Origin: Candidatus Gastranaerophilales bacterium
GTDB lineage: Bacteria > Cyanobacteriota > Vampirovibrionia > Gastranaerophilales > UBA9971
Assembly (NCBI GenBank): GCA_028281965.1
Contig: JANQIY010000092.1
Coordinates: 1-54,361 of the forward strand
Direction: 5' to 3'
Length of the DNA stretch: 54,361 nt
The notes below the pieces were generated by a model that was given only the letters and a program-made list of their open reading frames with translations, was not told where the DNA came from and made no database searches. Both the position numbers and the translations under genes were made by a program. Of this stretch, positions 22,929-44,545 are shown piece by piece. How positions within the stretch are numbered: position 1 is the stretch's first letter; every line of letters starts with the position of its first letter.

Positions 22929-24071
22929 TTAAAAGTTGTTTAAGGAGTTTTGCCTTTCTTTTACCAAAGCGAGAAACTCCAGGGAAGTTTTTTGCAGGGC
23001 ACTAATCAATTCCTGCCCGGAATGCGCCTCGATGACAGGAGAATATACAATATCCCGGCTTGTCCGGTTTTTTGGGTTGAGTATATTGAAAAGTTTTGCC
23101 TGTTGTGATGGGCTTAAGAGCATTTCAGAACCGTGAGCGGTAATAGGTACAGATTGCGAAGAGTCTCCGGGAATAACCCCGCCTGAGCTGTAAGTAAGAT
23201 TTTTATTTATAATTTTGCCGTAAACGTCTTTCTGTACTTCTGTTCCGTCGTCATCATCATCTTGCTCATCATCATCTTCGTTGTCTTCATCTTCGTCGTC
23301 GTCTTCGTCACCTTCGTCTTCACCGTCTTCGTCGTCTTCATCTTCATCGTCGTCCTGGCTTTTTTCCCTTTCTCTTTTTATTTTTTCAACAGCTTCGTGC
23401 ATTTGATCCATTTTTTCAGGGAGTTCAGATATTTTTTCGTTAAAAGTTTCCAGAGTTTTTTGAAAACTTTCGTTGTCTATAAGATTATTTAATTCATCTG
23501 AAGTGTTTTGTAAGGTATTTTGAAGCTTGTCAAAGTTTTCGGGCAAATCCATCATAGCTTTTTTGAAGTTATTTTTTAATTCTATTATGGAGTCACAAAC
23601 TTCTTGCAAGGAATCCATCTCTCTTGCCCAGCCTTTATAAGCCTCTTCAACAGGAGTTATTGCCATTTTAGCAAATAAACCAAGAGGAATAAAAGTTGTT
23701 ATAAAAGGAAGTCCATGTATTCCAAGAGTTTTAGGCAATCCATATTTTTCATAATCTCTGTTGATTTCTTTTGCTAAGTCAGCCAGATTTAAACCTTTAA
23801 CGAGTTTAGCACTCCCTTTAAAGAATTTAAGATTTTTACGTGCTTCTTTAAGATCTTCTTTCAGGGTTTTATTTAGTTTTCTGGCATAAGTATTATCGTT
23901 TTTTGCCAGCGACTCATAGCTTTCGCCAACACTTTCAAGATATTGTTCTAATTTTTTTAAGGCTTTTTCTATTTGTTCTTTTAGATAGTATTCTGATGCT
24001 TTAGTTATATATGGTTTATATTTGTTTTTTTTATTATTTTTATCAGATTTTCCAGTCACAATATACTCCAA
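22929..24071 (-). CDS. tape-measure-like protein, paralogue A (with poly-acidic tract)
   Basis: 380 aa with a hydrophobic segment and a helical region. It has a D/E tract of about 40 residues and the C-terminal block GGVIPGDSSQSVPITAHGSEMLLSPSQQAKLFNIL. Confidence 0.55.
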   Translation of the reverse strand: MEYIVTGKSDKNNKKNKYKPYITKASEYYLKEQIEKALKKLEQYLESVGESYESLAKNDNTYARKLNKTLKEDLKEARKNLKFFKGSAKLVKGLNLADLAKEINRDYEKYGLPKTLGIHGLPFITTFIPLGLFAKMAITPVEEAYKGWAREMDSLQEVCDSIIELKNNFKKAMMDLPENFDKLQNTLQNTSDELNNLIDNESFQKTLETFNEKISELPEKMDQMHEAVEKIKREREKSQDDDEDEDDEDGEDEGDEDDDEDEDNEDDDEQDDDDDGTEVQKDVYGKIINKNLTYSSGGVIPGDSSQSVPITAHGSEMLLSPSQQAKLFNILNPKNRTSRDIVYSPVIEAHSGQELISALQKTSLEFLALVKERQNSLNNF

Positions 24072-24579
24072 TTTTATACAAAAAGCTTTTTCTCATTGCT
24101 TTTTGGTCTAAATTGTTTTGTTTTAAATTAGATTCAATATATTCTAAAGTTTTTTCTTTAAAATCTTCGGGGTCGGGAACGATAAGAATTTTAGGGAAGA
24201 AAGAATTAGAAAGTTTAAAAAATAAAGTACTGATGTTTTGTAAGTCATAGATTATTTGGCTTAAATCAGAAGTTGCAGGCTTTATAATACCGATATAAAT
24301 TATATTTTTTAGCCAAATGCACTTATGTTTGAAAAAAATATTTTGATAAACAATTTTTTTATTAGTTAAAATGACGTTTGAGCATAAAGAATAAATAAGC
24401 CAATATGTTAAGAAAATAAGTAAAAAAATTACTATTAAAACTATTTTACTTTTATTTAAGCCCGGCAAAAGATAAAATATCAATGCTATACAGGTTATAA
24501 TTATAAAAGAATATAGAATTTTAGTTATAAGTGTTCTTTTAGGTTTAAAGATTATTATTTCATCCTTATCCAGCTTCAT
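24043..24579 (-). CDS. membrane protein, bacterial PH-domain (DUF304/bPH_2)-like, moron copy 1
   Basis: Start at the MKLDKDEIIIFKPK Met (ATG 24579, AAGGA RBS). Two TM helices are followed by LTNKKIVYQNIFF, typical of bPH_2 proteins. The track N-terminal extension translates the duplicated leader. Confidence 0.55.
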   Translation of the reverse strand: MKLDKDEIIIFKPKRTLITKILYSFIIITCIALIFYLLPGLNKSKIVLIVIFLLIFLTYWLIYSLCSNVILTNKKIVYQNIFFKHKCIWLKNIIYIGIIKPATSDLSQIIYDLQNISTLFFKLSNSFFPKILIVPDPEDFKEKTLEYIESNLKQNNLDQKAMRKSFLYKIGVYCDWKI

Positions 24580-24612
24580 GATAGTCCTTTTTTGGTTTAT
24601 ACAACAGGGACA

Positions 24613-24688
24613 ATTATATCCGGAAAACACCTCATAATTAAGCGGCAATTATCACGGAAAACTTCCGTATTTTAAGGAAAAATTCCTT
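24613..24688 (-). promoter_or_regulatory. moron leader with promoters and GGAA-N3-TTCC palindromes (copy 1)
   Basis: Minus-strand TATAAT (24618-24613) and TTAAAA-16-GATAAT (24675-24648). Palindromes acGGAAaacTTCCgt (24654-24668) and aaGGAAaaaTTCCtt (24674-24688) occupy the spacer and the -35. Confidence 0.4.
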
Positions 24689-24735
24689 GATAATAAATAT
24701 TATGAAAAAATTATTATTATCTTTTGTCATAATTA

Positions 24736-25239
24736 TTATTCCAGTTGATAAAGCCAGTCCTGATTTAAAGAATTGTCTTTTATGTTGTTATAAATATATT
24801 CCATAGTAATTTCCTGAAAATCGTCAGGTTCAGGTGTTAAAACTCTTCTTTTAAAAAATTTGCCGGACAGTGTAAAAACAAGCTTTCTCAGGTTTTGCAA
24901 ATCAAACATTAACGCAGACTCTCCTGAAAAGGAAGATTCAATTTCAATGTCTACTATATCTTTTAACCATATGCTTTTAGTAATAAAAAAAATATTTTGA
25001 TATAAAACTCTTTTATTGGTTAATAAAACAGGAGAAAGGAACATATGGATACTTAATAGGGTTGTAAGTAACATAATTGCTGCCAATATTATATGGTCAA
25101 AACTATGAGTTATAATTGCTACCAATAAAATATAACCAAGCGCATAGAGAGTTAATGAAAGCAAAATTGTATTAAAAATTTTAGTAAAAAGGTTTCTTTT
25201 AGGTTTAAAGATTATTATTTCATCCTTATCCAGCTTCAT
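24736..25239 (-). CDS. membrane protein, bacterial PH-domain (DUF304/bPH_2)-like, moron copy 2
   Basis: It has the same MKLDKDEIIIFKPK N-terminus (ATG 25239) and the same RBS as copy 1. Two TM helices are followed by LTNKRVLYQNIFF. The body has diverged from copy 1. Confidence 0.55.
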   Translation of the reverse strand: MKLDKDEIIIFKPKRNLFTKIFNTILLSLTLYALGYILLVAIITHSFDHIILAAIMLLTTLLSIHMFLSPVLLTNKRVLYQNIFFITKSIWLKDIVDIEIESSFSGESALMFDLQNLRKLVFTLSGKFFKRRVLTPEPDDFQEITMEYIYNNIKDNSLNQDWLYQLE

Positions 25240-25330
25240 GATAGTCCTTTTTTGTTTATACACCAGGGACAATTATATCCGGAAAACACCTCATAATTAA
25301 GCAGTAATTATCACGGAAAACTTCCGTATT

Positions 25331-31130: not shown

Positions 31131-31331
31131 CTAAATTCCCTTTGTCAAAGATAAAAAAGGCCTTGCAAAGACTGTTTTTTTCTGCTCCCTGAGCATTGAT
31201 TCCTTAAACCGGAGAACAGCCATATAACTGTTATAAGCCTTTACCGTTTCTTTATACCCGGAAAACGCCGGATATTTATCTGAATAAGGCAAAACCGGCC
31301 GGCTTAAAATTCCCGTGTCAGAATTACTCAT
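31131..31331 (-). CDS. hypothetical small protein
   Basis: 66-aa ORF overlapping the portal stop by 8 nt, with no recognisable motif. Confidence 0.3.
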   Translation of the reverse strand: MSNSDTGILSRPVLPYSDKYPAFSGYKETVKAYNSYMAVLRFKESMLREQKKTVFARPFLSLTKGI

Positions 31332-32571
31332 CTTTTACTCCCCTTGAATCTTTGCTGTCAATCTCAAAATCCCTGTCATTAAGCCCATAATTTTCAATAT
31401 AATAAGACTTAGAAAACTTAACGCCCTGCTTAACAAGAATCTCATCACGTTCCGCCAGGGCCTTGTTAACGTCTTCTTCCTCAAACATGGAAAATTCGGG
31501 AATTTCGCCGCTGTTGAAGTTAATTTCCCAAATCCACCTGATAAGGCGGTTATGAGTCCTCTCCACAATTTTTTTATCAGAATAAACAATATCCTTTCTC
31601 ACCTCTGCATGAACCTTCCCAAGCGCATAAGAACCTGTCCCCTTGCTGGTTATGTCAGTTGTCAGGGTCTGCCCGAGAATTGCCTTTGAAATAGAGCTGT
31701 CACAGGTATTTATAAGGTTCTCGTACAGGTCAGAACTGGTGTTTCTGTTGCCCGGCTCAATAAAATTAAGCTCGGCATCATCGGAAATAACAGCCACAGC
31801 ATCCATTACCATAGCTTCCAGTTGGTCTTTCATGTTTTCCCGGTCAGAATCCATGGTTGAGCGGGGAAGCTTTCCGACGATATAGGGCATTCCGTATTTT
31901 TCAGCAAACGTTACCCACCATTTAAACCCTGATTTCTTAAAAGTAACGGGCCAGAAACACGAGGACAAAACCCTGTCCCCATAAGGGTTGTAGTAGTGGT
32001 TATTTATATCGTTATAAGTCGGCGTCAGGAACTTTTTATCAGGCAAAACCTCTCCGCTGATGCAGTTATTTATTGTGGACAGCCTCAATTTTGAGTCCTT
32101 ATCATATAAAAACCATTCCTGGTTTTTGGGGATAAGCTCAACAGGCAGGATATAATTCCCAACCTTGCCCCAGATGACTTCTATAGGCTGAAACCCGAAC
32201 ATCGGCGCATTGAGGATTGCCTGGTTAAAAGCGTGAATATCAAGATCATTATACAGGTCATAAATGAGCTTAGCCTGTTTTGACTTGCTTTTACCCTTGT
32301 CTATTTCCCACAGGAGACTTAGTATCCCTGATTTCCTGCTGTTAACGCACGCCCTGACCTGTGAATCCACCATTAACTTACGGTAAGCGGAAACATCCTT
32401 ACCGGTATTTTGAAGGATTTCATCAGGGTCGGGAAGATATCCCAGGATAAAATTAAGGTCAACCCGCTCACGTTTTGCTAACTCCTGCCCTAACAGCCTG
32501 GGCGCTTCTTTGTAGTGATATTTTGCCCTTTGCTGCGGTGTTTTTTTCTTAAAAAAATCAAGTAAATTCAT
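31324..32571 (-). CDS. portal protein (Mu gp29 / DUF935-like)
   Basis: 415 aa. N-terminal LPDPDEILQNTGKDVSAYRKLMVDSQVRACVNSRKSG matches the DUF935 portal signature. Confidence 0.7.
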   Translation of the reverse strand: MNLLDFFKKKTPQQRAKYHYKEAPRLLGQELAKRERVDLNFILGYLPDPDEILQNTGKDVSAYRKLMVDSQVRACVNSRKSGILSLLWEIDKGKSKSKQAKLIYDLYNDLDIHAFNQAILNAPMFGFQPIEVIWGKVGNYILPVELIPKNQEWFLYDKDSKLRLSTINNCISGEVLPDKKFLTPTYNDINNHYYNPYGDRVLSSCFWPVTFKKSGFKWWVTFAEKYGMPYIVGKLPRSTMDSDRENMKDQLEAMVMDAVAVISDDAELNFIEPGNRNTSSDLYENLINTCDSSISKAILGQTLTTDITSKGTGSYALGKVHAEVRKDIVYSDKKIVERTHNRLIRWIWEINFNSGEIPEFSMFEEEDVNKALAERDEILVKQGVKFSKSYYIENYGLNDRDFEIDSKDSRGVKDE

Positions 32572-32618
32572 TATTTTACCTCTTTATATCCGGCTATTTT
32601 TAAGCATAAAGCGACGCT

Positions 32619-32654
32619 AAAAAACGTCCTGAACTTTACCAGAACGTTTTTTTT
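32619..32654 (-). terminator. intrinsic terminator closing the TerL-portal moron
   Basis: The minus-strand RNA reads AAAACGUUCUG-GUAAAGUU-CAGGACGUUUUUU. The single imperfect position is a G-U pair on this strand only, and a U6 tract follows. Confidence 0.6.
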
Positions 32655-32693
32655 AAAATTATTTAAGATTCCTAAAAAAGAAATAACAACTTT

Positions 32694-32882
32694 TTATGTT
32701 TTACAGAAAACCAGTTCTTTTTTAGCCTGTTCTATATGCTGTGCACAATCATTACAAATATAACTGCTATTTCTTCTGATAAATTTTAAATCTGAAAGGT
32801 TTTGATTTCCGCAATAATAGCAACTTGCATTTTTATCAATTTTCTTTCTTTTTATGAATTTTTTTATTGTTGTAATAATCAT
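32694..32882 (-). CDS. stand-alone ClpX-type C4 zinc-finger protein
   Basis: 62 aa. SCYYCGNQNLSDLKFIRRNSSYICNDCAQHI parallels the ClpX N-terminal CSFCGK....V.KLI.G...YICDECV. Cys residues at 21, 24, 43 and 46. AGAGG RBS. Confidence 0.6.
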   Translation of the reverse strand: MIITTIKKFIKRKKIDKNASCYYCGNQNLSDLKFIRRNSSYICNDCAQHIEQAKKELVFCKT

Positions 32883-32970
32883 TTTACTTTTACCTCTTTA
32901 GTTATATTAAAACAAAAACCAAAAAATTTTTTCACTTTCATAATTGATTTTTTACTAATCTATACAAATT

Positions 32971-34485
32971 TTAGGATTTTATCGACATTGCCTGATGATA
33001 AGCATCTCTTATTTTATAGTTAAAGTCGTGATTAATTTTGAATTCAGGATCTTCGTTAAAGTAAGTTGCGTCTTTGCTTCCCTGGTGTCTATTATAGCCT
33101 ATAAATCCACGCTGATATAATATTAGCATCAAAGCATCGATATTATGATCACAATAATCATGTAAAAACTTTTTTTCTTTATTTTCATCCCATGCATGAC
33201 TTACACATAAATCATTTAAAATTTTATTTATTTCATTATAAGAGTAAATTGGTTTATTTCCTTCAAATACTATTATTATGGGTTCAATGTCCCAGGTCCA
33301 AATTGTTTTAAAATAATTTTTTAGCTCGCTTAATTTTTGCTGAGAAAAAGTTAACGAAAGCCTTCTTAGCTCATCTTTATTTAATTTTTCTCCTTTTTCT
33401 ATGCAAGAATCTATACATACTTTATAAACTTGAAGAATGTCCCTTGGTGTTCCAGTTGTTGTTTTATATAAATCTTTAAAATCGATATTAGAAGTAAATA
33501 TTTCTTTAAAGTCATTTATTTTAAAAAATTCCAGCCGTTTATTAAGAATTTTTTGACAGCCTGAAGGATTCCACCTCAAATAACGAACGTAATCATTGTT
33601 TATTTTATCCTGAATGTGTCTTAAGTTAATTTCTTTGTAAACTGATTCAAGTAAAGTCGTAATTACTTTGAATTTTGATTTTTTATTTAAGTAATGGATA
33701 GACTGAATTAAACCCTCTATATATAATTTTGAAAAAGCAGTGTTATCCCAGGCTTCATCCAAATCATCAATAAGAACAAAATAACTTCCCTGTTTATCAA
33801 GCTCATCTAATTTATTAACGAATTCATCCATAAATTTTAAACTTTTATTAAATTTATCAACAATGTCGAGCTCTTTTTCTGTTTTTAAATTTTTTGCGTC
33901 AATACCTCCCTCTATGGAAGTTTCTGTTTTTACCATTTTGAAATCAAAGATGATTTTTTGGCTTCCTTTAATGAAAAAATCGAAAGAATTACCTTTTTTG
34001 GTTATGCCAAAAAAGTCATCAATTTCTTTAAAATAAGGGTTTGTAAATCTTGTAAACCCCTGATCAAAAATATTTTTATTTTCAAATATTTTTTTTGCTA
34101 TTGCTGAACATACTATAAACATCCACAAAAGCTTAAAAGCATATCTTTTTTCGCTAAAGTTTTCATCTGTAAAAAATTCAGATAAAGCTCTTTGAGACGA
34201 AACTACCCCAAAATCTCGATTACTTATATTTATAATTGACTTTGAGTTATTGATATTTCTAACTTGTTGGAGAATGGCGCTTTTCCCCGTACCCTTTTCG
34301 CCAATCATGATAGAAAGTGAATTATTAATATCTTTTATATGTTCATATACTGTATTTTCAACGAAATAATTACTTAAATTTAAATCCCTTTCTGCTTCAG
34401 TAGGACCTAAATTAATACTTTTTAATAATTCTAAAGGAATTCCAGCTTCTTTTTTAGGCGTTTTCTTTGGTCTTAGTCTTGCCAT
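32971..34485 (-). CDS. P-loop NTPase (AAA+/STAND-like), family unassigned
   Basis: 504 aa. Walker A GEKGTGKS (aa 62-69), Walker B YFVLIDDLDE (aa 235-244) and a sensor-like TGTPRDIL. The gene is visibly more AT-rich than the flanking terminase and portal genes. Confidence 0.7.
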   Translation of the reverse strand: MARLRPKKTPKKEAGIPLELLKSINLGPTEAERDLNLSNYFVENTVYEHIKDINNSLSIMIGEKGTGKSAILQQVRNINNSKSIINISNRDFGVVSSQRALSEFFTDENFSEKRYAFKLLWMFIVCSAIAKKIFENKNIFDQGFTRFTNPYFKEIDDFFGITKKGNSFDFFIKGSQKIIFDFKMVKTETSIEGGIDAKNLKTEKELDIVDKFNKSLKFMDEFVNKLDELDKQGSYFVLIDDLDEAWDNTAFSKLYIEGLIQSIHYLNKKSKFKVITTLLESVYKEINLRHIQDKINNDYVRYLRWNPSGCQKILNKRLEFFKINDFKEIFTSNIDFKDLYKTTTGTPRDILQVYKVCIDSCIEKGEKLNKDELRRLSLTFSQQKLSELKNYFKTIWTWDIEPIIIVFEGNKPIYSYNEINKILNDLCVSHAWDENKEKKFLHDYCDHNIDALMLILYQRGFIGYNRHQGSKDATYFNEDPEFKINHDFNYKIRDAYHQAMSIKS

Positions 34486-34517
34486 ATTAAATATTTATAC
34501 TTATATTATAAACTTTA

Positions 34518-34545
34518 ATTATAAATCAAAACCATAAATAATCAA
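34518..34545 (-). promoter_or_regulatory. sigma70-type promoter TTGATT-16-TATAAT
   Basis: On the minus strand the -35 is at 34545-34540 and the -10 at 34523-34518. It lies between the TerL stop and the NTPase ATG. Confidence 0.5.
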
Positions 34546-34572
34546 TTAGCGTTAACCCGTTTTATGACCTAT

Positions 34573-35919
34573 TTAATACCCTCTGGTTATTTTTGACGAT
34601 CTATCCAGTTTTTCGGTTATAATTTGCCCGGGGCCTTTTCCGGCCAGCTGCTCAAAAGCCCCGCTTGCGGCGTCAACCTGGTCATCATGGAACCCTTTCT
34701 GCGGAAAAACAACGCATTCCTCAATAAACTCCCTGTTCCAGATACCTCTTACCAGCTTTACATTAGAGTTTTCAACAGCCGACATAAGAGGCTTTGCGCG
34801 GGTAATCTTGCTGCCTGTGGACTTAATTCCCCTGAAGCAAAACCCCTTAAGGACATTTCTTGCGTAGTGACTTATGGTGTTCAGCCCGGAACTGCCGGGT
34901 TCCTGCTCCATAAAGACCTCAGTGTGAACCCCGTCTAATTCAGCGGTCTGCCTTATCAACTCCTCAACCCCCATAGGAGAAAGGCGTTTTCTTATGACGT
35001 CAATAATCCAGTAAACGCCTTTATATTCACAAATTTTCACCCCCGCGGTAAAGTCGGAATCCCTGCCGGCAACCTCATCCGTGCCGGCTAAATCCCAGAA
35101 CCTGACGGCCCTTGCTTTTTTAGGGTAATCCTCAACGATCTCGAATTTCTCCCGTTTAAAAAAGTTTCCGCCGGGCATTATATTCCAGTCACCGTCTTTT
35201 AACTGTTTTCTGGTAACCGGGTCAAGCTCGTCCAGGTTTTTTTCATATTCTTCCCTGTCTAAATGCGGGTTATCCCTTAGACCTGCCGGGATAAATACCC
35301 TTCCCTGTTTTTTCTCGGTGATAAACCTGTTTTTTACCCACTCATGCCCAACCCCGCCGGGGTTGGAAGTGCTTCTAAAACGCAGGGGAATGCGGGAATC
35401 AATAATTTTCCGGTTCCTGGAAAACAGGTATGTATACTGCGGTTCAGTAAACTGTGTCAGCTCGTCAAACCCCACAAAGTGAAAGGCTGAGCCCTGATAC
35501 CTGTACTTGTCGTTTTCGGAATCCAGGAACCCGAAGTTTAAGGTTGCTCCTGAAGGGAAAAGCCACTGCTTTTCCTGGTTTACCCATTTTGCCCCGGTAG
35601 GTTCAAGCCATTCATGGCTTATATCAATCAATGCCCCGGGCAGGTTTAGCTGTGAATAGTTTCTCCTGAGGATTAAAGCCCTGTAAGTCGGCTCTGCAAC
35701 AAACATTAATGCAGCCATCAACAACGCAACGGATTTCCCTCCCCCTGCAGCACCTCCATATAAGATTTCTTTTTCAAATCCCAAAAGAAATTCAAGCTGT
35801 TTATCTGTAGGAGTAAAGGGGATATAAGGGTTTTCAAGAATCGTTACCTGGTAAATCGCTTTCAATATTGCTTTGTTCAAATTTCTCAAAAACATCGGCT
35901 TTTTCTTGTATTTTCTCAA
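34573..35919 (-). CDS. terminase large subunit
   Basis: 448 aa. Walker A GGAAGGGKS, a C-terminal nuclease-type acidic motif (HDDQVDA) and the usual position after TerS. The start is uncertain, with alternatives at 35919 and 35895, because it overlaps TerS. Confidence 0.8.
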   Translation of the reverse strand: MRKYKKKPMFLRNLNKAILKAIYQVTILENPYIPFTPTDKQLEFLLGFEKEILYGGAAGGGKSVALLMAALMFVAEPTYRALILRRNYSQLNLPGALIDISHEWLEPTGAKWVNQEKQWLFPSGATLNFGFLDSENDKYRYQGSAFHFVGFDELTQFTEPQYTYLFSRNRKIIDSRIPLRFRSTSNPGGVGHEWVKNRFITEKKQGRVFIPAGLRDNPHLDREEYEKNLDELDPVTRKQLKDGDWNIMPGGNFFKREKFEIVEDYPKKARAVRFWDLAGTDEVAGRDSDFTAGVKICEYKGVYWIIDVIRKRLSPMGVEELIRQTAELDGVHTEVFMEQEPGSSGLNTISHYARNVLKGFCFRGIKSTGSKITRAKPLMSAVENSNVKLVRGIWNREFIEECVVFPQKGFHDDQVDAASGAFEQLAGKGPGQIITEKLDRSSKITRGY

Positions 35920-36280
35920 AAATATTCTCTTTTATCAGGTTATCAGGGTTGTTTTTAAAGTCTGAAAATGTCAGCTTATCGAAACCAAAGGCTTTTCCTT
36001 TAGTCTCGATTGCTTTTATCAAAGTGGCGGGGTTTCCGGACTTATAAGCCAGTTCAATAGCCTTATCCAGTTCATGGATATAAGCATTAATGGAATAGTC
36101 CTGTTTTTGCTGAAGTTCTGCCAGGTATTTTTTAAAGTAAGGGTTTTTCAGCCATCCCTCTGCCCGGGCTTTCGCCGTGGAATGGGCATAACCCGCTTTA
36201 ACCGCCGCTTCATAGGCGTCATCAGTTTGTATAAAGTATTTGCAAAATGCTTTTTGTCTTTTTGTAAGATATTTAGCCAT
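35834..36280 (-). CDS. terminase small subunit (Terminase_2-like)
   Basis: 148 aa. LTKRQKAFCKYFIQTDDAYEAAVKAGYAHSTAKARAEGWLKNPYFKKYL matches the small-terminase HTH pattern. Confidence 0.7.
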   Translation of the reverse strand: MAKYLTKRQKAFCKYFIQTDDAYEAAVKAGYAHSTAKARAEGWLKNPYFKKYLAELQQKQDYSINAYIHELDKAIELAYKSGNPATLIKAIETKGKAFGFDKLTFSDFKNNPDNLIKENIFEKIQEKADVFEKFEQSNIESDLPGNDS

Positions 36281-36515
36281 AGATTATCTTTCAGGTTAGA
36301 GTAAGTTTTTATATATGAAAATCAATCGGCAATAAATTTTTACCAATTTGTTTTTAGTTTTGTAAACATTTTTATATTTATGAATTTATTTTGTGCTTTC
36401 AGGGATGTTTAATTGAATAAGCGTTTTATAAATTCAAAATGCATTCGGAAAATCCTGATAACCCTTTTCCAGCATAGCTGATGCGAAATATTAATTAAAA
36501 AACGGAGAAAAAACA

Positions 36516-36725
36516 ATGGTACCAAGAACTTTGCATACAAGAGACTATATAAAGGCATTAACTGAAAATAAAGGATTAACAGGCCGGTTAAAAGCAAAAA
36601 CTCTTGATGCTTCTGCAAAAGAAAAACCTTTTTCGGGTGCATTAGCTCGAAACTTGGGTCTTCAAGAAAAAAGAAAATTTGGCAGCACTATCCACGGCAA
36701 ACTACTTTCCTGTGACTTGTACTAA
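36516..36725 (+). CDS. hypothetical basic small protein
   Basis: 69 aa with GGAG 8 nt before the ATG. It is preferred over the overlapping minus ORF 36409..36642, which looks like low-complexity junk. Confidence 0.4.
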   Translation: MVPRTLHTRDYIKALTENKGLTGRLKAKTLDASAKEKPFSGALARNLGLQEKRKFGSTIHGKLLSCDLY

Positions 36726-36755
36726 TGATAGAAAATTAAAAAAAAGGGGTAAAAA

Positions 36756-37148
36756 ATGCAATTACATAACATTTCGTTTGGACAACAATTAACCATTAAG
36801 ACTATCGATATAGATGGTAAGAAATTTGAAGATTCTATTGAAATCAATACAGGTTTATATCCGCAAACTGGAGACCCAACAAGATTTAGTGTTTTACCCT
36901 ATGAAGATGGCTATTTCGAAATTGAAATTCATAATGAAGGAGATGAAATAGTTGATGAAGAAGATAGGATAAAAAACCGTATTGGTGGGGTTCCTTTAGG
37001 ACAATTAAGAAGAGCCTGGAGTGGTTTATTTGATATGATGCAAAATGGCGAAGACACCACGATACGTGTAAATCGACAAAGAGAAACCGTAGCGGTAATT
37101 CACGCCCAAACGTCACAAAGAAAAGGCAATCTTGATTCCCTTGCTTAA
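36756..37148 (+). CDS. hypothetical protein
   Basis: 130 aa with an AAGGGG RBS. It is followed by a 12-bp stem hairpin tctaattaaccc-gtcatt-ggggttaattaga. No motif recognised. Confidence 0.5.
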   Translation: MQLHNISFGQQLTIKTIDIDGKKFEDSIEINTGLYPQTGDPTRFSVLPYEDGYFEIEIHNEGDEIVDEEDRIKNRIGGVPLGQLRRAWSGLFDMMQNGEDTTIRVNRQRETVAVIHAQTSQRKGNLDSLA

Positions 37149-37381
37149 ATCTAATTAACCCGTCATTGGGGTTAATTAGACAAATCCTCCCTTGTCAAGC
37201 AGGCAAAGGTAGGTGTCATTCCTGGTATAAGATACGTTATGAGTCATAACGATTTTATTTACGGATTGGATAATATTCTTTAAAAACAAAAATTTTGTAA
37301 TAAAATTGTAAAATTTTTGTCAAATTTTATTTTTAGGCTTTTTATTAATAATAAGATAACAAAATTATCAAAGGTTTAAAG

Positions 37382-38179
37382 ATGATTAATAACAGTATAA
37401 ATTTAAATTATTACAGTACAGGCGCAGTTAGAAAGCCTTTCTTTGGAATTCAAGAGGTACATGATCATAACTTTTACGTGCCTGTTGGAGAAGGCAGTCA
37501 TACAAACATAAAAAGAATTTTTGGACACGAACAAGATGATGAAAAAGTTAAAAGCGTATTAATAGAAGGAGTTGATTTTTTAAATGATCAATATAAAAAA
37601 GAGGGAATTAGCAACGACAAAAGGAAAGAGAAAATTTCTACAATCAGGGCAAATGCCGAAAGCTTAAGAGGATCGTGGACAGATATTTATAAACTGGAAG
37701 AAGCGTTGAAAATAGATTCCCCAAACACAATTTATGCTGATAACCAGGCTCAAAAAATCAGCGAAGATAGTATTGAAAACCAGGAAAAAGTTCTTATTAA
37801 AGGGAACCTGCTTATTCTTATATTTGACCTGGCAGATGATTTTACTAAAAAGAAATTATTCGAAATACTGTCTATCTCGGATGAAGCTTTTGATAATACG
37901 TTAAACAGTATAGTTGATAAAATGGAACAGGTAGATTTTGACAGTTATGTTTATAATTTAAAAAAGAATAAACAGCATATAACACTTGAAGAGCTTCAGA
38001 AAATTGCAGGCCAAGAGGTGGAAGATGGGAAAAGGATTAATTTAAGTGAGTTAACCGAGATAGTCGTCCGGGAAAGCAATCTACATAAATATAATCGTAG
38101 GTCAACCGATAAATCAATCGAAGGCGAAAGTGTATTTGTTGACCCATATATGTTTCTAGGTGGGAAACGGATTCAGTAA
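37382..38179 (+). CDS. hypothetical protein
   Basis: 265 aa, acidic and helical, with no motif recognised. It converges on the XRE gene at 38221..38439. Confidence 0.5.
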   Translation: MINNSINLNYYSTGAVRKPFFGIQEVHDHNFYVPVGEGSHTNIKRIFGHEQDDEKVKSVLIEGVDFLNDQYKKEGISNDKRKEKISTIRANAESLRGSWTDIYKLEEALKIDSPNTIYADNQAQKISEDSIENQEKVLIKGNLLILIFDLADDFTKKKLFEILSISDEAFDNTLNSIVDKMEQVDFDSYVYNLKKNKQHITLEELQKIAGQEVEDGKRINLSELTEIVVRESNLHKYNRRSTDKSIEGESVFVDPYMFLGGKRIQ

Positions 38180-38220
38180 ACTTTAAATAACTCGAATCTC
38201 TAAATTCCTTAAAACAATTT

Positions 38221-38439
38221 CTAATAATCAAAATCAAACAATTGTTGAATTTTGATGTTTAAGGCGTTAGATAACTTTAACATCGTATCTAAACTGGGTT
38301 TTCCTACTGCCCTTTCAATTTTCCCCACAAATTTTGGATGAATGTCCGCCAATTCAGATAAATCGTTCTGGGTCAAACCTTTTTCGACCCGTAATTTCTT
38401 TATATGCTTCCCCAGTTCTCTATAAAAATTTTCAAACAT
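38221..38439 (-). CDS. XRE-family HTH regulator (Cro/early-region-like)
   Basis: 72 aa. KGLTQNDLSELADIHPKFVGKIERAVGKPSLDTMLKLSNAL. Confidence 0.7.
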   Translation of the reverse strand: MFENFYRELGKHIKKLRVEKGLTQNDLSELADIHPKFVGKIERAVGKPSLDTMLKLSNALNIKIQQLFDFDY

Positions 38440-38512
38440 AAATTAAATATTAATGTTATATTAATTTTGTTAAACACCCAGGCTGGGTCTCTTTAAGTTA
38501 TAGGAGAACAAA

Positions 38513-38662
38513 AATGGAAAAGAATAAAATTAGCCGGGAAGAAGTATATTCAGGACTAATAACCGACGCAAGACTGATAATTGACGAGCTTGAACATATA
38601 CTTGAACAAGTCTTAAAGGAAAACACCGAACTTAAAACCCGATCCGGAAATAAAGATCAATA
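38513..38662 (+). CDS. unannotated small ORF (49 aa)
   Basis: ATG preceded by AGGAG (38501-38505). Product MEKNKISREEVYSGLITDARLIIDELEHILEQVLKENTELKTRSGNKDQ. It is below the track cut-off. Confidence 0.4.
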
Positions 38663-38937
38663 AATTAAAATTTAATTAACTCATTCTGGTATAAAAGAAT
38701 TGAAGCAATAAAAATGACAGGAATTGAAATTTTACAATTTGGAATAGCTAGCGGTTTTTTTATTTTAATATTAATTGCCGCTGTAAAAATGACTAAAAAG
38801 CCTGTTCACAAAGAAAACCATAAATAATTATTTTGGATGACGTTTATTATGTTAATTTTAAACGTTTTTTGAATTTTACACACAATACTGCGTCCCAAAA
38901 AAATAAACCCCGCATAAGCCAGATTTTGTGAGCTTTG

Positions 38938-39036
38938 TTAATGTTTTAAATCTGCATCTTTAGGCATTGAGATGAAAGAAATATAAGCAATGCCGCCAAA
39001 AACAATAATAGCTGTTAATATAGCAAGATATTCCAT
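38938..39036 (-). CDS. unannotated single-TM peptide (32 aa)
   Basis: MEYLAILTAIIVFGGIAYISFISMPKDADLKH. AAAGGAA RBS. It starts 4 nt after the stop of 39041..39301. Confidence 0.35.
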   Translation of the reverse strand: MEYLAILTAIIVFGGIAYISFISMPKDADLKH

Positions 39037-39040
39037 AAAG

Positions 39041-39301
39041 TTATTCCTTTTTCTCCAAATTTTTTAATTCTTTTAATATTGTATCAATCTTTTTATTAAA
39101 GGAATAGATTATTAATATTAGTATAATAATTAAAGCAAATCCGCTAAAAATAAAAACAGTTTCAACAATACCCGGTTCTATTCGACAAGCGCTTAAAAAT
39201 AAACCAACTGTAGCACCAGATGAAAGCAAAAAAGCATTCCATACTCCCATTCTGTATGTTCTGAGGGTATTTAACATTTCAATTAAGTATTTATCGTTCA
39301 T
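39041..39301 (-). CDS. small two-TM membrane protein
   Basis: 86 aa with two hydrophobic helices and a charged C-terminus. Confidence 0.45.
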   Translation of the reverse strand: MNDKYLIEMLNTLRTYRMGVWNAFLLSSGATVGLFLSACRIEPGIVETVFIFSGFALIIILILIIYSFNKKIDTILKELKNLEKKE

Positions 39302-39514
39302 AAGCTGTTTATAAGTTTATCTATACTGCTTATAAGAGAGCTTAGCATAACTTGAACGAAAAAATAACCGATAATATTTATTATGTAACACGGGTCGTTT
39401 TTAGTAATTTGTGTGCTTCTATATACCCCCGGAAAATAAAGCGGGCTTAAAATTGATTCTGTGAGCTCTATATTGATTAAAATTTTGCTTTTTATGAAAT
39501 TCGAAAAAACCTGA

Positions 39515-39544
39515 TCAGAAATATAATTTCTGAAAATCAGAAAT
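39515..39544. promoter_or_regulatory. candidate operator (TCAGAAAT half-sites)
   Basis: Perfect palindrome tcagaaat-ata-atttctga (39515-39533) plus a third tcagaaat (39537-39544). Confidence 0.3.
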
Positions 39545-39567
39545 TATTATATGCAAAAATCTTAAGT

Positions 39568-39598
39568 AAAAAATAAAAACAGGGGCAAATGCCCCTGT
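39568..39598 (-). terminator. intrinsic terminator
   Basis: The minus strand reads acaggggc-attt-gcccctgt followed by tttttatttttt. It lies 38 nt after the stop of 39636..40016. Confidence 0.7.
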
Positions 39599-39635
39599 AA
39601 AAAGGAAGTCAGTGTGATTAATAAAGAATCTAAAG

Positions 39636-40016
39636 CTATACAGCTATTAAATCTAAATCTTCTCTGCTGATAAGTCTGTTTGTAGCTAGTTCTCGCACTT
39701 CCTGGCGGATTTTGTTCCTCTTTAAATCCCAGAAAGTATTACAGTAATGGAACCCTTTCGCAGTATTTTTCCTATACTGCCGATGTTTTTTAGCCTCAAC
39801 AAGCCTGTGTTGATTTTCCTCAAGAAAATTTACAGCCCGTTTTCCTCGCAGGATTTGTTTTTCAATCCGGCCCAAAACACTGATTTTTTCCATTTCAAGT
39901 AAAAGAACCTTGCAACTGGAATTGCTACAATACCCTACTTTTAAAACATGTAAACCTTCTTCATCCGTAAACATAAACCTTTTCGGCCTAACCAGTCTTC
40001 CGCAACATTTAAGCAC
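39636..40016 (-). CDS. hypothetical protein (GTG start)
   Basis: 126 aa. The GTG at 40016 lies 7 nt after AAGGGGG. The protein is Cys-containing and basic, with no motif recognised. Confidence 0.5.
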   Translation of the reverse strand: MLKCCGRLVRPKRFMFTDEEGLHVLKVGYCSNSSCKVLLLEMEKISVLGRIEKQILRGKRAVNFLEENQHRLVEAKKHRQYRKNTAKGFHYCNTFWDLKRNKIRQEVRELATNRLISREDLDLIAV

Positions 40017-40319
40017 TCAAAAACCCCCTTGTCGATCTCTTCTCAGGATATATACATACTCACGGCAAACACCGAACACCATTTAAGCCGTTTTTCTATG
40101 ACATACATCCTGCCGGTCCAAGAATCCGCCAAGCCATTCCGCTAAGCACCAGGACAAGCATATCACCCGTGAAACAACTTTGGAACTTAACCATTTTAAT
40201 AAAATACCAGCTGTAGTAATTATTTCGTTGTTTTATTAATCCCTGAGCGAAAACAGCAGATTAATTCCAGTGATATTTTGATTTTAGCAAAAGTTTATAT
40301 GCTCATTTGTAAACTTAGA

Positions 40320-40574
40320 TTAAGTATCCCTACGGAATATAGAAGATTTTATTAACTTTATATCAGACAGCCTGTAAAGCTCATCTAAAAATTTATGTTT
40401 ATCTTTTATAAGGATTTCAACACTATCATATATATGTATTTTCTCCGTTAACTGCTTTAAAGTGTTGTAAGCACTTATCCAGCGTTTAAAATAAACATTA
40501 AACCTGTTGATTTTACTTTCATCCTCTACCAGCTCAGAAATAAAATCTTCTAAAAAAATTTCTTTTTTGTTCAT
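40320..40574 (-). CDS. hypothetical early-region protein
   Basis: 84 aa. It is the first minus-strand gene leaving the divergent switch region opposite the CI-like gene. Confidence 0.45.
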   Translation of the reverse strand: MNKKEIFLEDFISELVEDESKINRFNVYFKRWISAYNTLKQLTEKIHIYDSVEILIKDKHKFLDELYRLSDIKLIKSSIFRRDT

Positions 40575-40719
40575 ATAACAACCCCTTTTTACATAAACAC
40601 CCTTAATACACTAGGTTTTTATCCAGCTATAAATTTTTTATATTTCGTTTTTATAGTTTAATAAAATTTTCTAAAACATTTTAAGGTTTATTCTTATGTC
40701 TAACCCTAAAGTATAAAGT

Positions 40720-40752
40720 TATCAAAAAGTAATCCTGGTATACTTTTTGATA
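40720..40752. promoter_or_regulatory. 12-bp inverted repeat in the divergent switch region
   Basis: tatcaaaaagta (40720-40731) / tactttttgata (40741-40752) with a 9-nt spacer. Confidence 0.35.
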
Positions 40753-41029
40753 GTAAAAAACAATGCACCGAAAAAATATTTATTTTTATAACGTTTAATT
40801 ATTTACTAAACTTAATTTTTTGAAATAAACGCAAATATATAAATTGCTATTTTTTTATATTAATAAGCACCTGATCTTATTTTACATTTTATTCATCATA
40901 ATTTACATGAAAATAGTATTCAAATTTGCATATCTTGTGCTATATTTATAAAACATATAAACTACATTGTAAAGAATTTTATCTATAAAGTCAAGGAGTT
41001 TTTCCTTAGTTAAGAAAATTTTTAATATT

Positions 41030-41440
41030 ATGAAAACATCAGAAAGATTAAAATATATTAGACAACAAACAGGATTAAGCCAGGAAAGGTTTGCTGACCT
41101 GCTTAAAGAAAAATTGAGCAGGATTAATAGCATTGAAGCCGGTAAACAAGCAAAATTTCCGTATGATTTAGCGGAAAAAATCCTTAAAACTTTTCCGGAG
41201 CAATACTATAACTTTAAGTGGCTGACCACCGGGGAAGGAGAGCCTTTTATCAAGAATATTCCGCGTAAATTAATACAAAAAGCCGAAAAAATTGCTGAAA
41301 AGCTTTTAAGTAAAGTAACGGATGCAGAATTTGAACTTTTAATGAAATGTTTAAAAGAAAACAAAGAATTAACAATAATGTTCCTAAAAAAACTCCAAAA
41401 TGATGAAAGATCAATTAAAAGTTTTTTATTGGATAATTAA
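41030..41440 (+). CDS. CI-like phage repressor (HTH)
   Basis: 136 aa. RLKYIRQQTGLSQERFADLL...INSIEAGK...WLTTGEGEPF matches the CI-repressor HTH family signature WLxTGEG. Confidence 0.7.
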   Translation: MKTSERLKYIRQQTGLSQERFADLLKEKLSRINSIEAGKQAKFPYDLAEKILKTFPEQYYNFKWLTTGEGEPFIKNIPRKLIQKAEKIAEKLLSKVTDAEFELLMKCLKENKELTIMFLKKLQNDERSIKSFLLDN

Positions 41441-41667
41441 CTCGAATCTCTAATTGCATACATGCAATATTTGCCAAAACCCAACCATGAATGAGCTACT
41501 GCGTTAGCTCCCGCTGCCGCGCACAGCCACCCTAAAGGTGAAAAAGAGGCTACGCCGCGAAATGCGGACAGCGCCGCCTGCTTCGCGCCTCTTTTCGATT
41601 CTCTATAATTTTTTGGCAAATGTTGCATATTCATATCCTGGCTTTTGGCTAATTCGCAACTCAAGTT
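41439..41667. repeat. dispersed nested-palindrome element (long form)
   Basis: It is collinear with 12908..13066 and has the same orientation, but carries two internal insertions, including the aatgcggacagcgccgcctgcttcgc block. It overlaps the CI-like stop codon. The track ORF 41437..41676 is its translation. Confidence 0.85.
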
Positions 41668-41682
41668 TTTAAGCATTCAGGG

Positions 41683-42480
41683 TTAATCATTTGGCAGGAC
41701 AAATCCATATTCTTTTAGTATTTTTTGCCCGCTTTCTCCTGAGAGAAATTCCACGAATTTTTGCGCGATTTGTTTTTTGGCGGAATTCTGCAAAACCGCA
41801 ACAGGATACTCTGCAGTCACGTTGAACTTCTCATCAATTTGCACAGGCCTGATTTTATCGGAATTTTCGTTTGTTATGTCTGTTGCGTAGACTATGCCTG
41901 CATCAACCTCGCCAAGTTCAATTTTTGCAACGACGCTTTTTACGTTTAGCTCTTTGCTTATGATATTTTTAAGGAATTTTTCCTTAAAATCAGCGGGAAA
42001 ATCCTGTGATTCCCGGATTTTACCAAGCACGGCAAGCGTATACCTGCCGGCAGGGACGGCTTCATCTGCTATGGAAATTTTTACCCCGGGCTTTGCAAGG
42101 TCTTTTAATTCGCCAACACCCGTTAATTCCCTGTTAATCACCGCAGTAAGCCTGTTTTTAGCTATTATTACAGGACTTTTAGCAAGGTTTTGCCCTACTA
42201 AAATGTTCATATACTTTTGATTTGCGCTGGCAAAAACATCAGCATATATCCCCTGCCGTATTTGTTGTGCCAGCTTTTGGCTTCCTGCAAAGTTAAGCTC
42301 GACTTCAATTTCCGGATATTTTTCCTCAAATTGTTTTTTCGCCGCGGTAAAAACCTGTGTCATGCTTGATGCGGCCATTACCCTTATACTTGTTGCGGTT
42401 TTCTTTTGCCCGCATCCTGAAAGGGTAATGACAGATATAACCACAACAATTAAAGTTATGTAATCAGCAATTTTTTTCAT
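41683..42480 (-). CDS. modA: molybdate ABC transporter substrate-binding lipoprotein
   Basis: 265 aa. Lipobox LSGC, with IRVMAASSMTQ..., FASAN and AEYPVAV blocks typical of ModA. It overlaps the ferredoxin gene by 4 nt. Confidence 0.8.
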   Translation of the reverse strand: MKKIADYITLIVVVISVITLSGCGQKKTATSIRVMAASSMTQVFTAAKKQFEEKYPEIEVELNFAGSQKLAQQIRQGIYADVFASANQKYMNILVGQNLAKSPVIIAKNRLTAVINRELTGVGELKDLAKPGVKISIADEAVPAGRYTLAVLGKIRESQDFPADFKEKFLKNIISKELNVKSVVAKIELGEVDAGIVYATDITNENSDKIRPVQIDEKFNVTAEYPVAVLQNSAKKQIAQKFVEFLSGESGQKILKEYGFVLPND

Positions 42481-42797: not shown

Positions 42798-44033
42798 TTA
42801 AGCTTCACAAACTGCAGGGATTTCAGCAAAGGCTTCTGATGATCTTATAATACCGTTTTGCACGGTATCGTATATTTCAAATACTTTAAATCCGGCATTT
42901 TTAAGTTTTGCTTTAGGCTCAGAACCTATCCTCATTGAAAGTACCGCTGCGCAGTCTTTTAAAGTATCTGCTATACTTATAATATAGTCTTTTTTATCCT
43001 CACAATCTTCTTTGCCGGTACAATACCTTGGAACTTTCCTTTTATCTATAAGCTCTATTTTGTTATTAGCGAATTTATAGATAAAAAATTCCTCAACCTG
43101 CCCGAAATGCTGGTCAATTATTTTTCCGTCGCTTGTCGCAACAGCAAAAACGTAAATGTCTTCACGGGAAGTTTTACGGGAAACCCGGGAAGAACAGCCT
43201 CCCCTGAATTCGACTGACCTGTCCCGGTGCAGCAGGCCTATTGCATCCGCCCTGCACTGCCGGCAATGATACATCTGGCTTATGTAGCCCGAGCATTTTT
43301 TTCTTATTTCGTTTAGCCTTTTGTTACTTAGCATCTCAACATTCTCAAATTTAGTATTTGGAGCGGGTATTAACTGCATTATGTTTGTTTTAAAAGCCCC
43401 CAGGGCTTTTACCTTTTTTGCAATTTCTTCTATGTGCCCTTCGTTAATATCTTTTATGGCAACGATGTTTACTTTGCAGATTATATCCCTTTCCGCAAGA
43501 TATTTTAGTCCCTGAAGCTGGTTTTTTATAAGGATTTCCGCTGCTTCTTCACCCGTGTAAACTTTTCCCCGGTAATTAATATACTCATAGATTTTCCCGC
43601 CAATTACCCTGTCTATAGCATTTATAGTTATCGTAACGTGAGTTATGCCTGAATTTACGATTTCTTCGGCGTAATGAGGCAGCATGAGCCCGTTTGTTGA
43701 AAGACAAAAAAGGACTTCAGGATCGGCGCCGCTTATTAATTCTATGGTTTTTTTAACTTTGTCAAAATTGGCAAGGGCGTCTCCCGGGCCTGCAAATCCA
43801 ATTACAGAGAGGTTTTGAACCTTCTCTTTCACTTTCAGGAACTTATCGAGGGATTGCCCGGGGGTTAGGATTTCACTTGTAACTCCCGGCCTGCTTTCAT
43901 TCACACAGTCATAATCCCTATGGCAGTAATTGCACTGGATGTTACAGGCAGGAGCAACAGGTAAATGCATTCTGGCATAGATCTTATGCCCGGTATCAGA
44001 AAAACAGGGATGTTTGTGTATTTTAATGCTCAT
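42798..44033 (-). CDS. nifB: nitrogenase cofactor biosynthesis radical-SAM protein NifB (with C-terminal NifX-like domain)
   Basis: 411 aa. HPCFSD..ARMHLPVAPACNIQCNYCHRDYDCVNESRPGV, plus a C-terminal NifX-fold domain. Confidence 0.9.
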   Translation of the reverse strand: MSIKIHKHPCFSDTGHKIYARMHLPVAPACNIQCNYCHRDYDCVNESRPGVTSEILTPGQSLDKFLKVKEKVQNLSVIGFAGPGDALANFDKVKKTIELISGADPEVLFCLSTNGLMLPHYAEEIVNSGITHVTITINAIDRVIGGKIYEYINYRGKVYTGEEAAEILIKNQLQGLKYLAERDIICKVNIVAIKDINEGHIEEIAKKVKALGAFKTNIMQLIPAPNTKFENVEMLSNKRLNEIRKKCSGYISQMYHCRQCRADAIGLLHRDRSVEFRGGCSSRVSRKTSREDIYVFAVATSDGKIIDQHFGQVEEFFIYKFANNKIELIDKRKVPRYCTGKEDCEDKKDYIISIADTLKDCAAVLSMRIGSEPKAKLKNAGFKVFEIYDTVQNGIIRSSEAFAEIPAVCEA

Positions 44034-44048
44034 TTCTACTTCCTATAA

Positions 44049-44336
44049 TTAAATTTTTTCAATTGCCTTGACCGGATCCGGGACTTCAGTTTCAATAATT
44101 GCCTTTATCCCAAGGTTATCAAGGTTTTGTATCATACCTTCCCCGATTTGCCCGGAAATTACAGCGCCGCAATCAAGGATTTCATCTATGATGTGGTCTG
44201 TATAGCTGCCTTTTCCGATTCTTTTTTCAATAAAATCCACTGTGCCGTTTTCATAATTATATATGAAAAAAGTTTCAGCCCTACCCAGGTGTGGAGCCAC
44301 TTTTCCTTCTTTGTCAACACTGACTGCTATTTTCAT
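44049..44336 (-). CDS. NifX/NifB-C-terminal family FeMo-cofactor-binding protein
   Basis: 95 aa. MKIAVSVDKEGKVAPHLGRAETFFIY... has the typical small dinitrogenase FeMo-cofactor biosynthesis domain. Confidence 0.7.
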   Translation of the reverse strand: MKIAVSVDKEGKVAPHLGRAETFFIYNYENGTVDFIEKRIGKGSYTDHIIDEILDCGAVISGQIGEGMIQNLDNLGIKAIIETEVPDPVKAIEKI

Positions 44337-44399
44337 TCTTTTTTCTCCTTTTTATTATAGTGATCTTAAAAAGTAATCAGGAAATTAATTAAATTTAAA

Positions 44400-44545
44400 A
44401 ATAAAAAATGCCTGAAACTACCATCCCCCTGCCCCCTTCCTTCAAAGGAAGGGGGAAACCGTTTTGGGTAGGGCTTCGTGCGTAATGCGGACAGTGCCGA
44501 CCGGCCCCTGCACCTAACCCTTAAAATACTTCTATTACTGCTTTT
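44400..44545. repeat. divergent member of the dispersed repeat family inside the nif operon
   Basis: It shares the aatgcggacag block (44484-44494) and has the hairpin cccccttcc-ttcaaa-ggaaggggg. The track ORF 44366..44554 is its translation. Confidence 0.6.

Follow-up and report, generated by a model that had tools for sequence, protein, structure and literature searches.

Why should a Mu-like prophage carry two AT-rich genes between the genes for its large terminase (TerL) and its portal protein? The question is raised by a 54,361-nt contig of a Candidatus Gastranaerophilales bacterium (JANQIY010000092.1 of assembly GCA_028281965.1, positions 1 to 54,361; hereafter the window), in which exactly 2,001 bp lie between the end of TerL (34573) and the start of the portal gene (32571). 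This segment holds open reading frames (ORFs) for a 504-residue ATPase and a 62-residue zinc-finger protein, both oriented as the late operon. An initial annotation, made from the DNA letters alone, had described the pair as a self-contained promoter-to-terminator moron and a candidate defence or exclusion module. Comparison with sister phages identifies the junction as a cargo hotspot of this Mu-like prophage lineage and the segment as horizontally acquired accessory cargo (a moron), not a conserved assembly function. That the cassette is a prophage-encoded anti-phage or superinfection-exclusion module has, in our judgement, about even chances. The features concerned are listed here.

32572..34572, unstranded: AT-rich cargo segment, 2,001 bp, GC (guanine plus cytosine) fraction 0.265, filling the TerL–portal junction
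34573-35919, minus strand: TerL, left flank of the hotspot, Terminase_6N and Terminase_6C, GC 0.460
31324-32571, minus strand: Mu-type portal, right flank of the hotspot, Portal_Mu (E value 1.4e-94), GC 0.426
32971..34485, minus strand: 504-aa P-loop ATPase of the Sll1717 family (NF047389, phrog_13260, 26-sequence alignment, AlphaFold2 model)
32694..32882, minus strand: 62-aa C4 zinc-finger ORF, similar to the N-terminal zinc-binding domain (ZBD) of ClpX
32893..32897, minus strand: AGAGG Shine-Dalgarno sequence of the zinc-finger ORF, 10 nt before the ATG
34545-34518, minus strand: sigma-70-like candidate promoter TTGATT-16-TATAAT (scan match 10/12), 33 nt 5' of the ATPase start codon
34510-34505, minus strand: second TATAAT, read from the sequence
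32619..32654, minus strand: putative intrinsic terminator, A8 tract, stem ACGTTCTG / CAGGACGT with one G-U pair, T6 tract; potentially bidirectional

Contents and borders of the TerL–portal junction

Sister phages with closely related portal and TerL genes were collected from IMG/VR, metagenomes and Logan assemblies. Their portals were 59-80% and their TerL proteins 61-76% identical to those of the window, the portals of L035, L037, L038 and L168 lying at 77-80%. The junctions contained the following.

Window: 2.0 kb, the ATPase and the zinc finger
L035 (portal 77%): the ATPase (66-72% identical), the zinc finger, a DpdB-like gene (72 bits), a 288-aa ORF, a nucleotidyltransferase (PDC-S09) and a 69-aa ORF
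L037/L166 (portal 80%): 2.4 kb of 26-30% GC with AbiLi (271.6 bits) and AbiLii (86.1 bits), a known abortive-infection system
L168 (portal 78%): 2.65 kb of antisense genes, an S8-peptidase-like gene and small ORFs
L038/L167 and L171 (portal 78-79%): 0.42-0.47 kb with one small antisense ORF
L041 and L042 (portal 59-61%): 2.2 and 3.4 kb of other genes

Because the sister phages hold different cargo, or only about 0.4 kb, at the same place, the junction reads as a cargo hotspot. Homology between the window and the sister phages stopped right after the TerL stop codon, and a completely empty site was not seen in any of them. Since sister phages with related portal and TerL genes do without the cassette here, it is not an assembly gene set. 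The outcome named at the outset as fatal to a defence reading, homologues that prove to be conserved assembly genes at the TerL–portal junction, is contradicted by the same comparison, as phages with 59-80% identical portals hold other cargo or 0.4-0.5 kb there.

The roughly 2.0 kb of AT-rich DNA initially reported was confirmed at 2,001 bp, with a GC fraction of 0.265 against 0.460 for TerL and 0.426 for the portal gene. The segment thus corresponds to a moron in the sense of Juhala and Hendrix, that is, extra genes of deviant base composition between genes that are adjacent in relatives (2.0 kb versus 0.42-0.47 kb; GC 0.265 versus 0.42-0.46). As regards autonomy, a non-distinctive promoter-like site and a strong hairpin are present, but the hairpin is common to other cargo in L037. 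A viral scan with a 15-nt arm of this hairpin returned at least 120 matching stretches that looked like chance, and a tblastn comparison across the recovered loci added no phage with a related portal or a close TerL relative; L082 alone gave a TerL match (38% identical).

Both ends of the supposed transcription unit need qualification. TTGATT-16-TATAAT lies where it had been placed, but promoter-like sites were no more frequent in the AT-rich region than in its shuffles (19 found, 20.0 expected), and the match by itself therefore carries little weight. It draws support from the orthologue of the ATPase in L001 (44% identical), where an analogous TTGTGC-17-TATAAT occurs at a similar distance upstream of the likely start. 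In the lysogen, transcription of the cassette probably starts at this sigma-70-type promoter of its own.

The terminator at 32654-32619 is a real hairpin, with a 14-bp stem when the A/U-tract pairs and the one G-U pair are counted. An 81-nt fold had an energy of -19.5 kcal/mol (z = -3.4) that none of 200 shuffles equalled; a simple terminator scan did not list it. What did not survive was its assignment to the cassette. The hairpin and the TTTATGCTTA that follows it were kept in L037 (4975-5030) behind AbiLii, with a perfect stem. As the same hairpin sits behind different cargo, it is best read as the conserved right border of the hotspot and not as a property of the ATPase/zinc-finger pair.

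The distance from terminator to portal ATG is only 47 nt in the window, to which L037 adds about 170 nt.

In L035 (1-1010) the copy of the ATPase gene has a frame change near residues 452-457 and its called product ends early, while the zinc-finger gene downstream is intact. The copy may be decaying or the frame change may be an assembly error.

The ATPase and the zinc-finger protein

The initial annotation could place the ATPase in no named family. It matched NCBIfam NF047389 ("P-loop ATPase, Sll1717 family") with 186.7 bits against a cutoff of 75, residues 26-499 covering positions 1-453 of the 454 in the profile, and PHROG 13260 (phrog_13260, function unknown) with an E value of 6.7e-35, residues 21-503 covering positions 4-492 of 497. 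These matches run end to end, in a family whose function is uncharacterised. A literature search turned up no paper on Sll1717, the family namesake, which is reportedly known only through an indirect effect on the plastoquinone redox state in Synechocystis. Pfam yielded sub-threshold P-loop matches only (AAA_16, 17.5 bits; cutoff 32.6), with no nSTAND match and no match to PF24389 (ORC-CDC6-like); several relatives passed the PF24389 cutoff over the Walker A region. A profile search against PDB sequences likewise gave P-loop-level matches only. The KAP family of NTPases was considered and rejected, as PF07693 was unmatched and convincing transmembrane helices were absent. The maximum 19-residue hydropathy of 1.58 (aa 116-134) fell in a helix that is charged and amphipathic in the family consensus and packed in the AlphaFold2 model.

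The 504-aa ORF and its motifs were present as first placed, with Walker A at G62-S69, Walker B at Y235-E244 and GTPRD from G345, and these motifs were conserved in an alignment of 26 family members. Invariant positions comprised G62/G65/G67, W121, D240/L242/D243/W246 (LIDDLDxxW), K294, W305, R317 and P347-R348; K68 and S69 were conserved in at least 90% of the sequences. Judged by this alignment, GTPRD is a true family motif at the start of the lid helix, comparable to the STAND GxP or ORC/Cdc6 sensor-2 motif. The position of sensor 1, after strand beta-4, is Arg in 22 of the 26 relatives and Leu in the window (L279, codon at ~33649-33651), P0002 and P0005. Leu at this position, together with a zinc-finger partner gene, sets the window ATPase and its two closest relatives apart from the rest of the NF047389 family.

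An AlphaFold2 model computed from the family alignment (pLDDT 82.4, pTM 0.82) predicts an AAA+/STAND-like nucleotide-binding domain in which a helical insert of ~140 aa (aa ~91-230) separates Walker A from Walker B. A predicted helical lid (H347-396) opens at the invariant P347-R348 and is followed by a C-terminal alpha/beta winged-helix-like domain. The top Foldseek matches in the PDB were Cdc6/Orc1 (1fnn, 7tjh_I, 2v1u), Sso1545 (2fna, TMt 0.51), BREX BrxC, MuB and RADAR RdrA, with TnsC also among the fold matches; those of ORC/Cdc6 type had E values of ~1e-5, TM-scores of 0.29-0.51 and 10-12% identity. The model can be taken to establish the general ATPase architecture but not a specific family kinship by fold.

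On these data the protein has the parts of a STAND-type core, namely a P-loop domain with Walker A and B, a GxP-type helical domain and a winged helix, but its residue 279 departs from the sensor-1 Arg conserved in STAND NTPases. Like the immunity STAND NTPases (Avs, bNACHT, nSTAND) it carries Walker A GxxGxGKS, Walker B hhhhDDLD, a GxP-like G-T-P-R lid and a C-terminal winged helix. Unlike them, it is only 504 aa long, has a ~140-aa helical insert and sub-threshold STAND Pfam matches, and lacks a repeat sensor or N-terminal effector. Pfam and the model revealed no repeat sensor (TPR, WD40, LRR) or effector, the chain ending after the winged helix at residue 504. Core, lid and winged helix are also shared with ORC/Cdc6 and archaeal ATPase_2 proteins (Sso1545, 2fna); in contrast to ORC/Cdc6, the window ATPase lies outside a replication context and the TM-scores reach only 0.29-0.51.

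The second ORF had been labelled a ClpX-type zinc finger. Its spacing bears this out: the cysteines C21-x2-C24 and C43-x2-C46, 18 residues apart, and their flanking residues are arranged as in the ClpX ZBD (PF06689; 2ds7, 1ovx), with the patterns C-x2-C-x18-C-x2-C and C-x-[FY]-C-G ... K-[LF]-I ... Y-I-C-x-[DE]-C. The label beyond spacing depends on three concordant but individually weak results, all below thresholds, by which the protein most resembles the ClpX ZBD. The Pfam zf-C4_ClpX profile (PF06689) scored 19.7 bits, under its cutoff of 27 (E value 7.8e-4). The three top PDB sequence matches were the ClpX ZBD structures 2ds7, 2ds5 and 1ovx, ungapped, with E values of 0.08-0.18. Foldseek ranked 2ds7 first (TMt 0.66, root-mean-square deviation 2.4 A, probability 0.82, E value 0.46) for an AlphaFold2 model made from the single sequence, with a pLDDT of 68 overall and ~84 in the core. 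Unlike ClpX, the protein stands alone at 62 aa, has a basic N-terminal tail and lacks an attached unfoldase.

An orthologue in L035 (71% identical) with a nonsynonymous-to-synonymous rate ratio (dN/dS) of 0.16, a sign of purifying selection, identifies the zinc-finger gene as real. The gene lies ~90-100 nt after the ATPase gene in all three close-clade members (the window, L001 with a partial orthologue, and L035) and was not found downstream of distant ATPase homologues in the loci examined. By this distribution it is a clade-specific partner that has co-evolved with the ATPase, and the clade that bears it is the one that lost the sensor-1-position Arg. The initial proposal that the two genes form one AT-rich accessory module is thus upheld. 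A word-indexed protein search and a viral scan found no zinc-finger homologue elsewhere, and nothing relevant on ClpX-type zinc fingers was found in the literature.

Two unrelated C4 zinc-ribbon ORFs (111 and 126 aa) were noticed on the same strand 350-400 nt downstream of distant ATPase homologues, at L005 4498-4833 and L011 5882-6262. They may be there by chance or be a sign that such partners recur in the family.

Relatives of the ATPase and candidate functions

When 1.84 billion cluster representatives (50% identity) were searched exhaustively with phmmer at E <= 1e-3, 631 relatives of the ATPase were found, most of them stand-alone proteins of ~500 aa and ~25% identity; about 95% of family members stand alone without a small partner. 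Other searches were far less productive. The word-indexed protein search returned just 4-6 relatives even with a profile, a scan of genome contigs with the single protein found nothing, and a profile of the close clade (A6) found nothing in the metagenome scan or the viral scan. Weak Pfam matches among the relatives were to AAA_16, nSTAND1, nSTAND3 and NPHP3_N. Some 13 of the top 150 relatives extend more than 100 aa beyond the core. Among the extended relatives scanned, TIR domains occurred in three (P0034, 77 bits; P0053, 36 bits; P0107, borderline) and EAD7 in two (P0070, P0143). The EADs serve as adaptors through which NTP-dependent conflict systems recruit their effectors (PMC7159879), and the fusions tie the ATPase core to such systems; TIR and EAD7 are a likeness to STAND immunity systems borne by the relatives of the window ATPase.

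In the 30 homologue loci with a complete gene, the GC of the gene was ~5-23 points under that of its locus, the exception being L001, a uniformly AT-rich 1.7-kb metagenome contig that is essentially the ATPase gene alone. Because the gene falls below its surroundings in this way, the family behaves, by composition, as foreign DNA throughout the loci seen. Most homologues sit in non-phage chromosomal contexts. Homologues were also seen on IMG/VR phage contigs: in L004, an unrelated, high-GC phage, the homologue adjoins a TerL fragment, and in L003 it lies just after an apparent Mor-type activator gene of a Mu-like phage, read by eye. On conjugative plasmids, homologues occupy accessory regions next to VapBC and ParDE.

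An ORF just upstream of the homologue P0007 (L175 1390-1596) reads 'IGNDAVHPGQIDLKDN...' and resembles by eye a fragment of DUF4145, a domain common in restriction and Abi contexts.

A defence role is suggested by the AbiL and DpdB-like cargo that the hotspot also takes, by the TIR and EAD7 fusions of relatives, by the foreign composition and by carriage on phages and plasmids. The presence of the defence ATPases BrxC and RdrA among the fold matches and the pairing of the ATPase with a zinc finger under purifying selection also speak for it. Defence genes are known to be over-represented in the cargo of phage hotspots and morons (bioRxiv 10.1101/2024.10.15.618418). AbiL offers a parallel in layout, being a two-gene ATPase-plus-partner system with its own upstream AT-rich promoter region, located in the identical hotspot before the same terminator in L037. 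The proteins themselves are not related to those of the window, which encodes an AAA+/STAND-like ATPase and a 62-aa zinc finger without a nuclease fold; AbiLi belongs to the ABC/OLD-type ATPases and AbiLii resembles RloB/Toprim.

Other observations weigh against this role. No effector domain could be recognised in either the ATPase or the zinc-finger protein, which agrees with the initial remark that no nuclease, TIR or protease effector was visible. The conserved sensor-1-position Arg is Leu in this clade, and ATP hydrolysis may therefore be altered. Two extended relatives (P0051, P0124) have N-terminal receiver (REC) domains, a pointer to signalling and not to immunity. Profile comparison of both proteins with PADLOC-DB v2.0.0, a check proposed at the outset, matched no system component (0 families for the ATPase; a marginal mREase_II match, E value 0.004, for the zinc finger), and fold-search TM-scores were low (0.3-0.5). 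Enrichment in defence islands, also proposed as a check, was not borne out in a survey of 28 distant homologue loci and 138 neighbouring proteins, mostly from Planctomycetota owing to a bias of the search pattern (sub-alignment A2). These neighbours were mostly housekeeping proteins, with sporadic type IIG restriction-modification, DrmMI and PDC matches only, and no conserved partner was found among them. No match was obtained by tblastn of the ATPase against 50,697 GenBank phage records. At the hotspot itself, the cargo of L041 and L042 includes amidase-like and phosphoesterase-like genes, assigned by eye from translations, that are not obviously defensive, and the candidate promoter matches the consensus in a stretch so AT-rich that the match is not statistically distinctive. 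Our confidence in a defence role stays near the midpoint because of the missing effector, L279, the REC-fused relatives, the lack of a PADLOC match and the weak link of distant homologues to defence genes.

The cassette could instead be hotspot cargo with a function other than defence, such as counter-defence during the phage's own infection, lysogenic conversion, or control of the host's physiology through an ATPase that acts as a signalling switch. Anti-defence and other accessory genes are also carried in phage hotspots (bioRxiv 10.1101/2024.10.15.618418), and both the two receiver fusions and the housekeeping surroundings of distant homologues, without defence neighbours, would fit. The TIR and EAD7 fusions speak against it, as does the finding that sister phages hold AbiL and DpdB-like genes in this very junction, and a sigma-70-type promoter with a terminator suits expression in the lysogen better than late lytic expression; we regard such a function as unlikely overall. 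Far more readily set aside is a conserved accessory role in morphogenesis, packaging or transposition of Mu-like phages, for instance as a MuB-like protein. It would account for MuB and TnsC among the fold matches and for the homologue that neighbours a piece of TerL in L004, a contig of an unrelated phage, but the closest sister phages (L037, L038, L168, L171) lack the ATPase at the junction, its GC is 16-19 points under that of the late operon, it has a promoter-like site of its own, and its homologues are mostly chromosomal and absent from the GenBank phages searched. Absence from sister phages, foreign composition and mainly non-phage homologues largely refute this explanation, and we hold it to be extremely improbable.

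Two further possibilities concern the relation between the two genes. The pair could be a toxin-antitoxin-like, addiction or otherwise selfish module that stabilises the cargo or the prophage, the zinc finger being antitoxin or regulator of a toxic ATPase. A large protein tightly followed by a very small one has this appearance, the zinc finger weakly matched the antitoxin family phrog_4681 in PHROG (E value 0.008), the island of L035 includes an MNT-type nucleotidyltransferase, and plasmid homologues lie beside VapBC and ParDE. That ~95% of the ATPase family has no small partner and that the ATPase contains no recognisable toxic domain make this improbable; the border with abortive infection is in any case blurred, and the overlap with a defence role is large. 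Alternatively, the zinc-finger ORF may encode a small regulator in its own right, perhaps a Com-like factor of translation or transcription, that is linked to the ATPase by chance. The co-occurrences number only three, all in one clade, no homologue of the zinc finger was found elsewhere, and distant ATPase homologues do without it. However, order, orientation and the ~90-100-nt spacing are kept across 44% to 70% ATPase identity, and the zinc-finger clade coincides exactly with the clade that lacks the sensor-1-position Arg, so that chance linkage seems quite improbable.

The terminator at the hotspot border would insulate the cassette from the portal gene. If the cassette is a defence module, the ATPase would serve as an NTP-dependent switch that, like STAND and ORC-type switches, responds to a trigger. 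The winged helix could capture DNA of the invader, or the helical insert one of its proteins, and the trigger-bound ATPase would oligomerise under nucleotide control. The zinc-finger protein would be an adaptor, a regulator or the output of the ATPase. In a more specific and very doubtful version, exclusion would be exerted by a minimal ATPase, sensor-less, effector-less and with its sensor-1 Arg lost, that acts through a stand-alone mimic of the ClpX ZBD. ClpX is required for remodelling Mu-type transpososomes and for repressor degradation. The zinc finger would then perhaps recruit or block the adaptor/substrate site of host ClpXP, and superinfecting Mu-like phages could be blocked without a nuclease, TIR or protease effector.

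Candidate defence modules that lie in prophage hotspots and use a STAND-like ATPase are well known as a kind. New are the minimal core without sensor and effector, the lost sensor-1-position Arg and the ClpX-ZBD-like partner; no description of these ATPase and zinc-finger features was found in the literature searched. If the cassette does protect against phages, it would provide the first function for a widespread named family (~630 representatives at 50% identity, E <= 1e-3) found on phages, plasmids and chromosomes, and would show a STAND/ORC-like switch working without built-in sensor repeats or effector. The ClpX-ZBD-like partner would in that case suggest that prophage-encoded immunity is tied to the proteolysis machinery of the host, which can be tested. 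Whatever the function, the TerL–portal junction is a hotspot with a conserved terminator border that can be mined for further systems, and the cassette is one of many such candidates, concrete and well suited to experiment.

The prophage and its host

The prophage lies in a bacterial contig between lipopolysaccharide glycosyltransferase genes (0-12 kb) and a nifHDKENB cluster (42.8-52.4 kb). Its late operon occupies the minus strand with a GC fraction of 0.420 and runs from the small terminase through TerL, the portal gene, a protease/scaffold-like gene and the capsid and tail genes to a 1,299-aa tail-fibre protein.

35834-36280, minus strand: small terminase, in the late operon ahead of TerL

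The TerL ORF as listed begins at a TTG and overlaps the small-terminase gene by 86 nt (35834-35919). TerL of L168 begins at a Met equivalent to residue 9 of the window protein (MFL...), and the true start is therefore probably at ~35895.

The divergent early region (36300-41700) encodes small ORFs only, including two helix-turn-helix regulators (38221-38439 and 41030-41440). As no integrase- or transposase-sized ORF was seen in this part of the window, the prophage may be defective or its recombination module may be located elsewhere.

The nitrogenase cluster that adjoins the prophage (42798-52443) comprises NifH, two NifD/K-type pairs and a NifB-like radical-SAM protein with a NifX domain, which, by gene content, makes the host a diazotroph.

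A second AT-rich island (24043-25272, minus strand, GC ~0.25) directly follows a tape-measure-like gene (22929-24071). It codes for two paralogous predicted membrane proteins of ~180-200 aa with the common N-terminus KQKRTIMKLDKDEIIIFKPKR, and is another moron-like insertion and a possible superinfection-exclusion locus.

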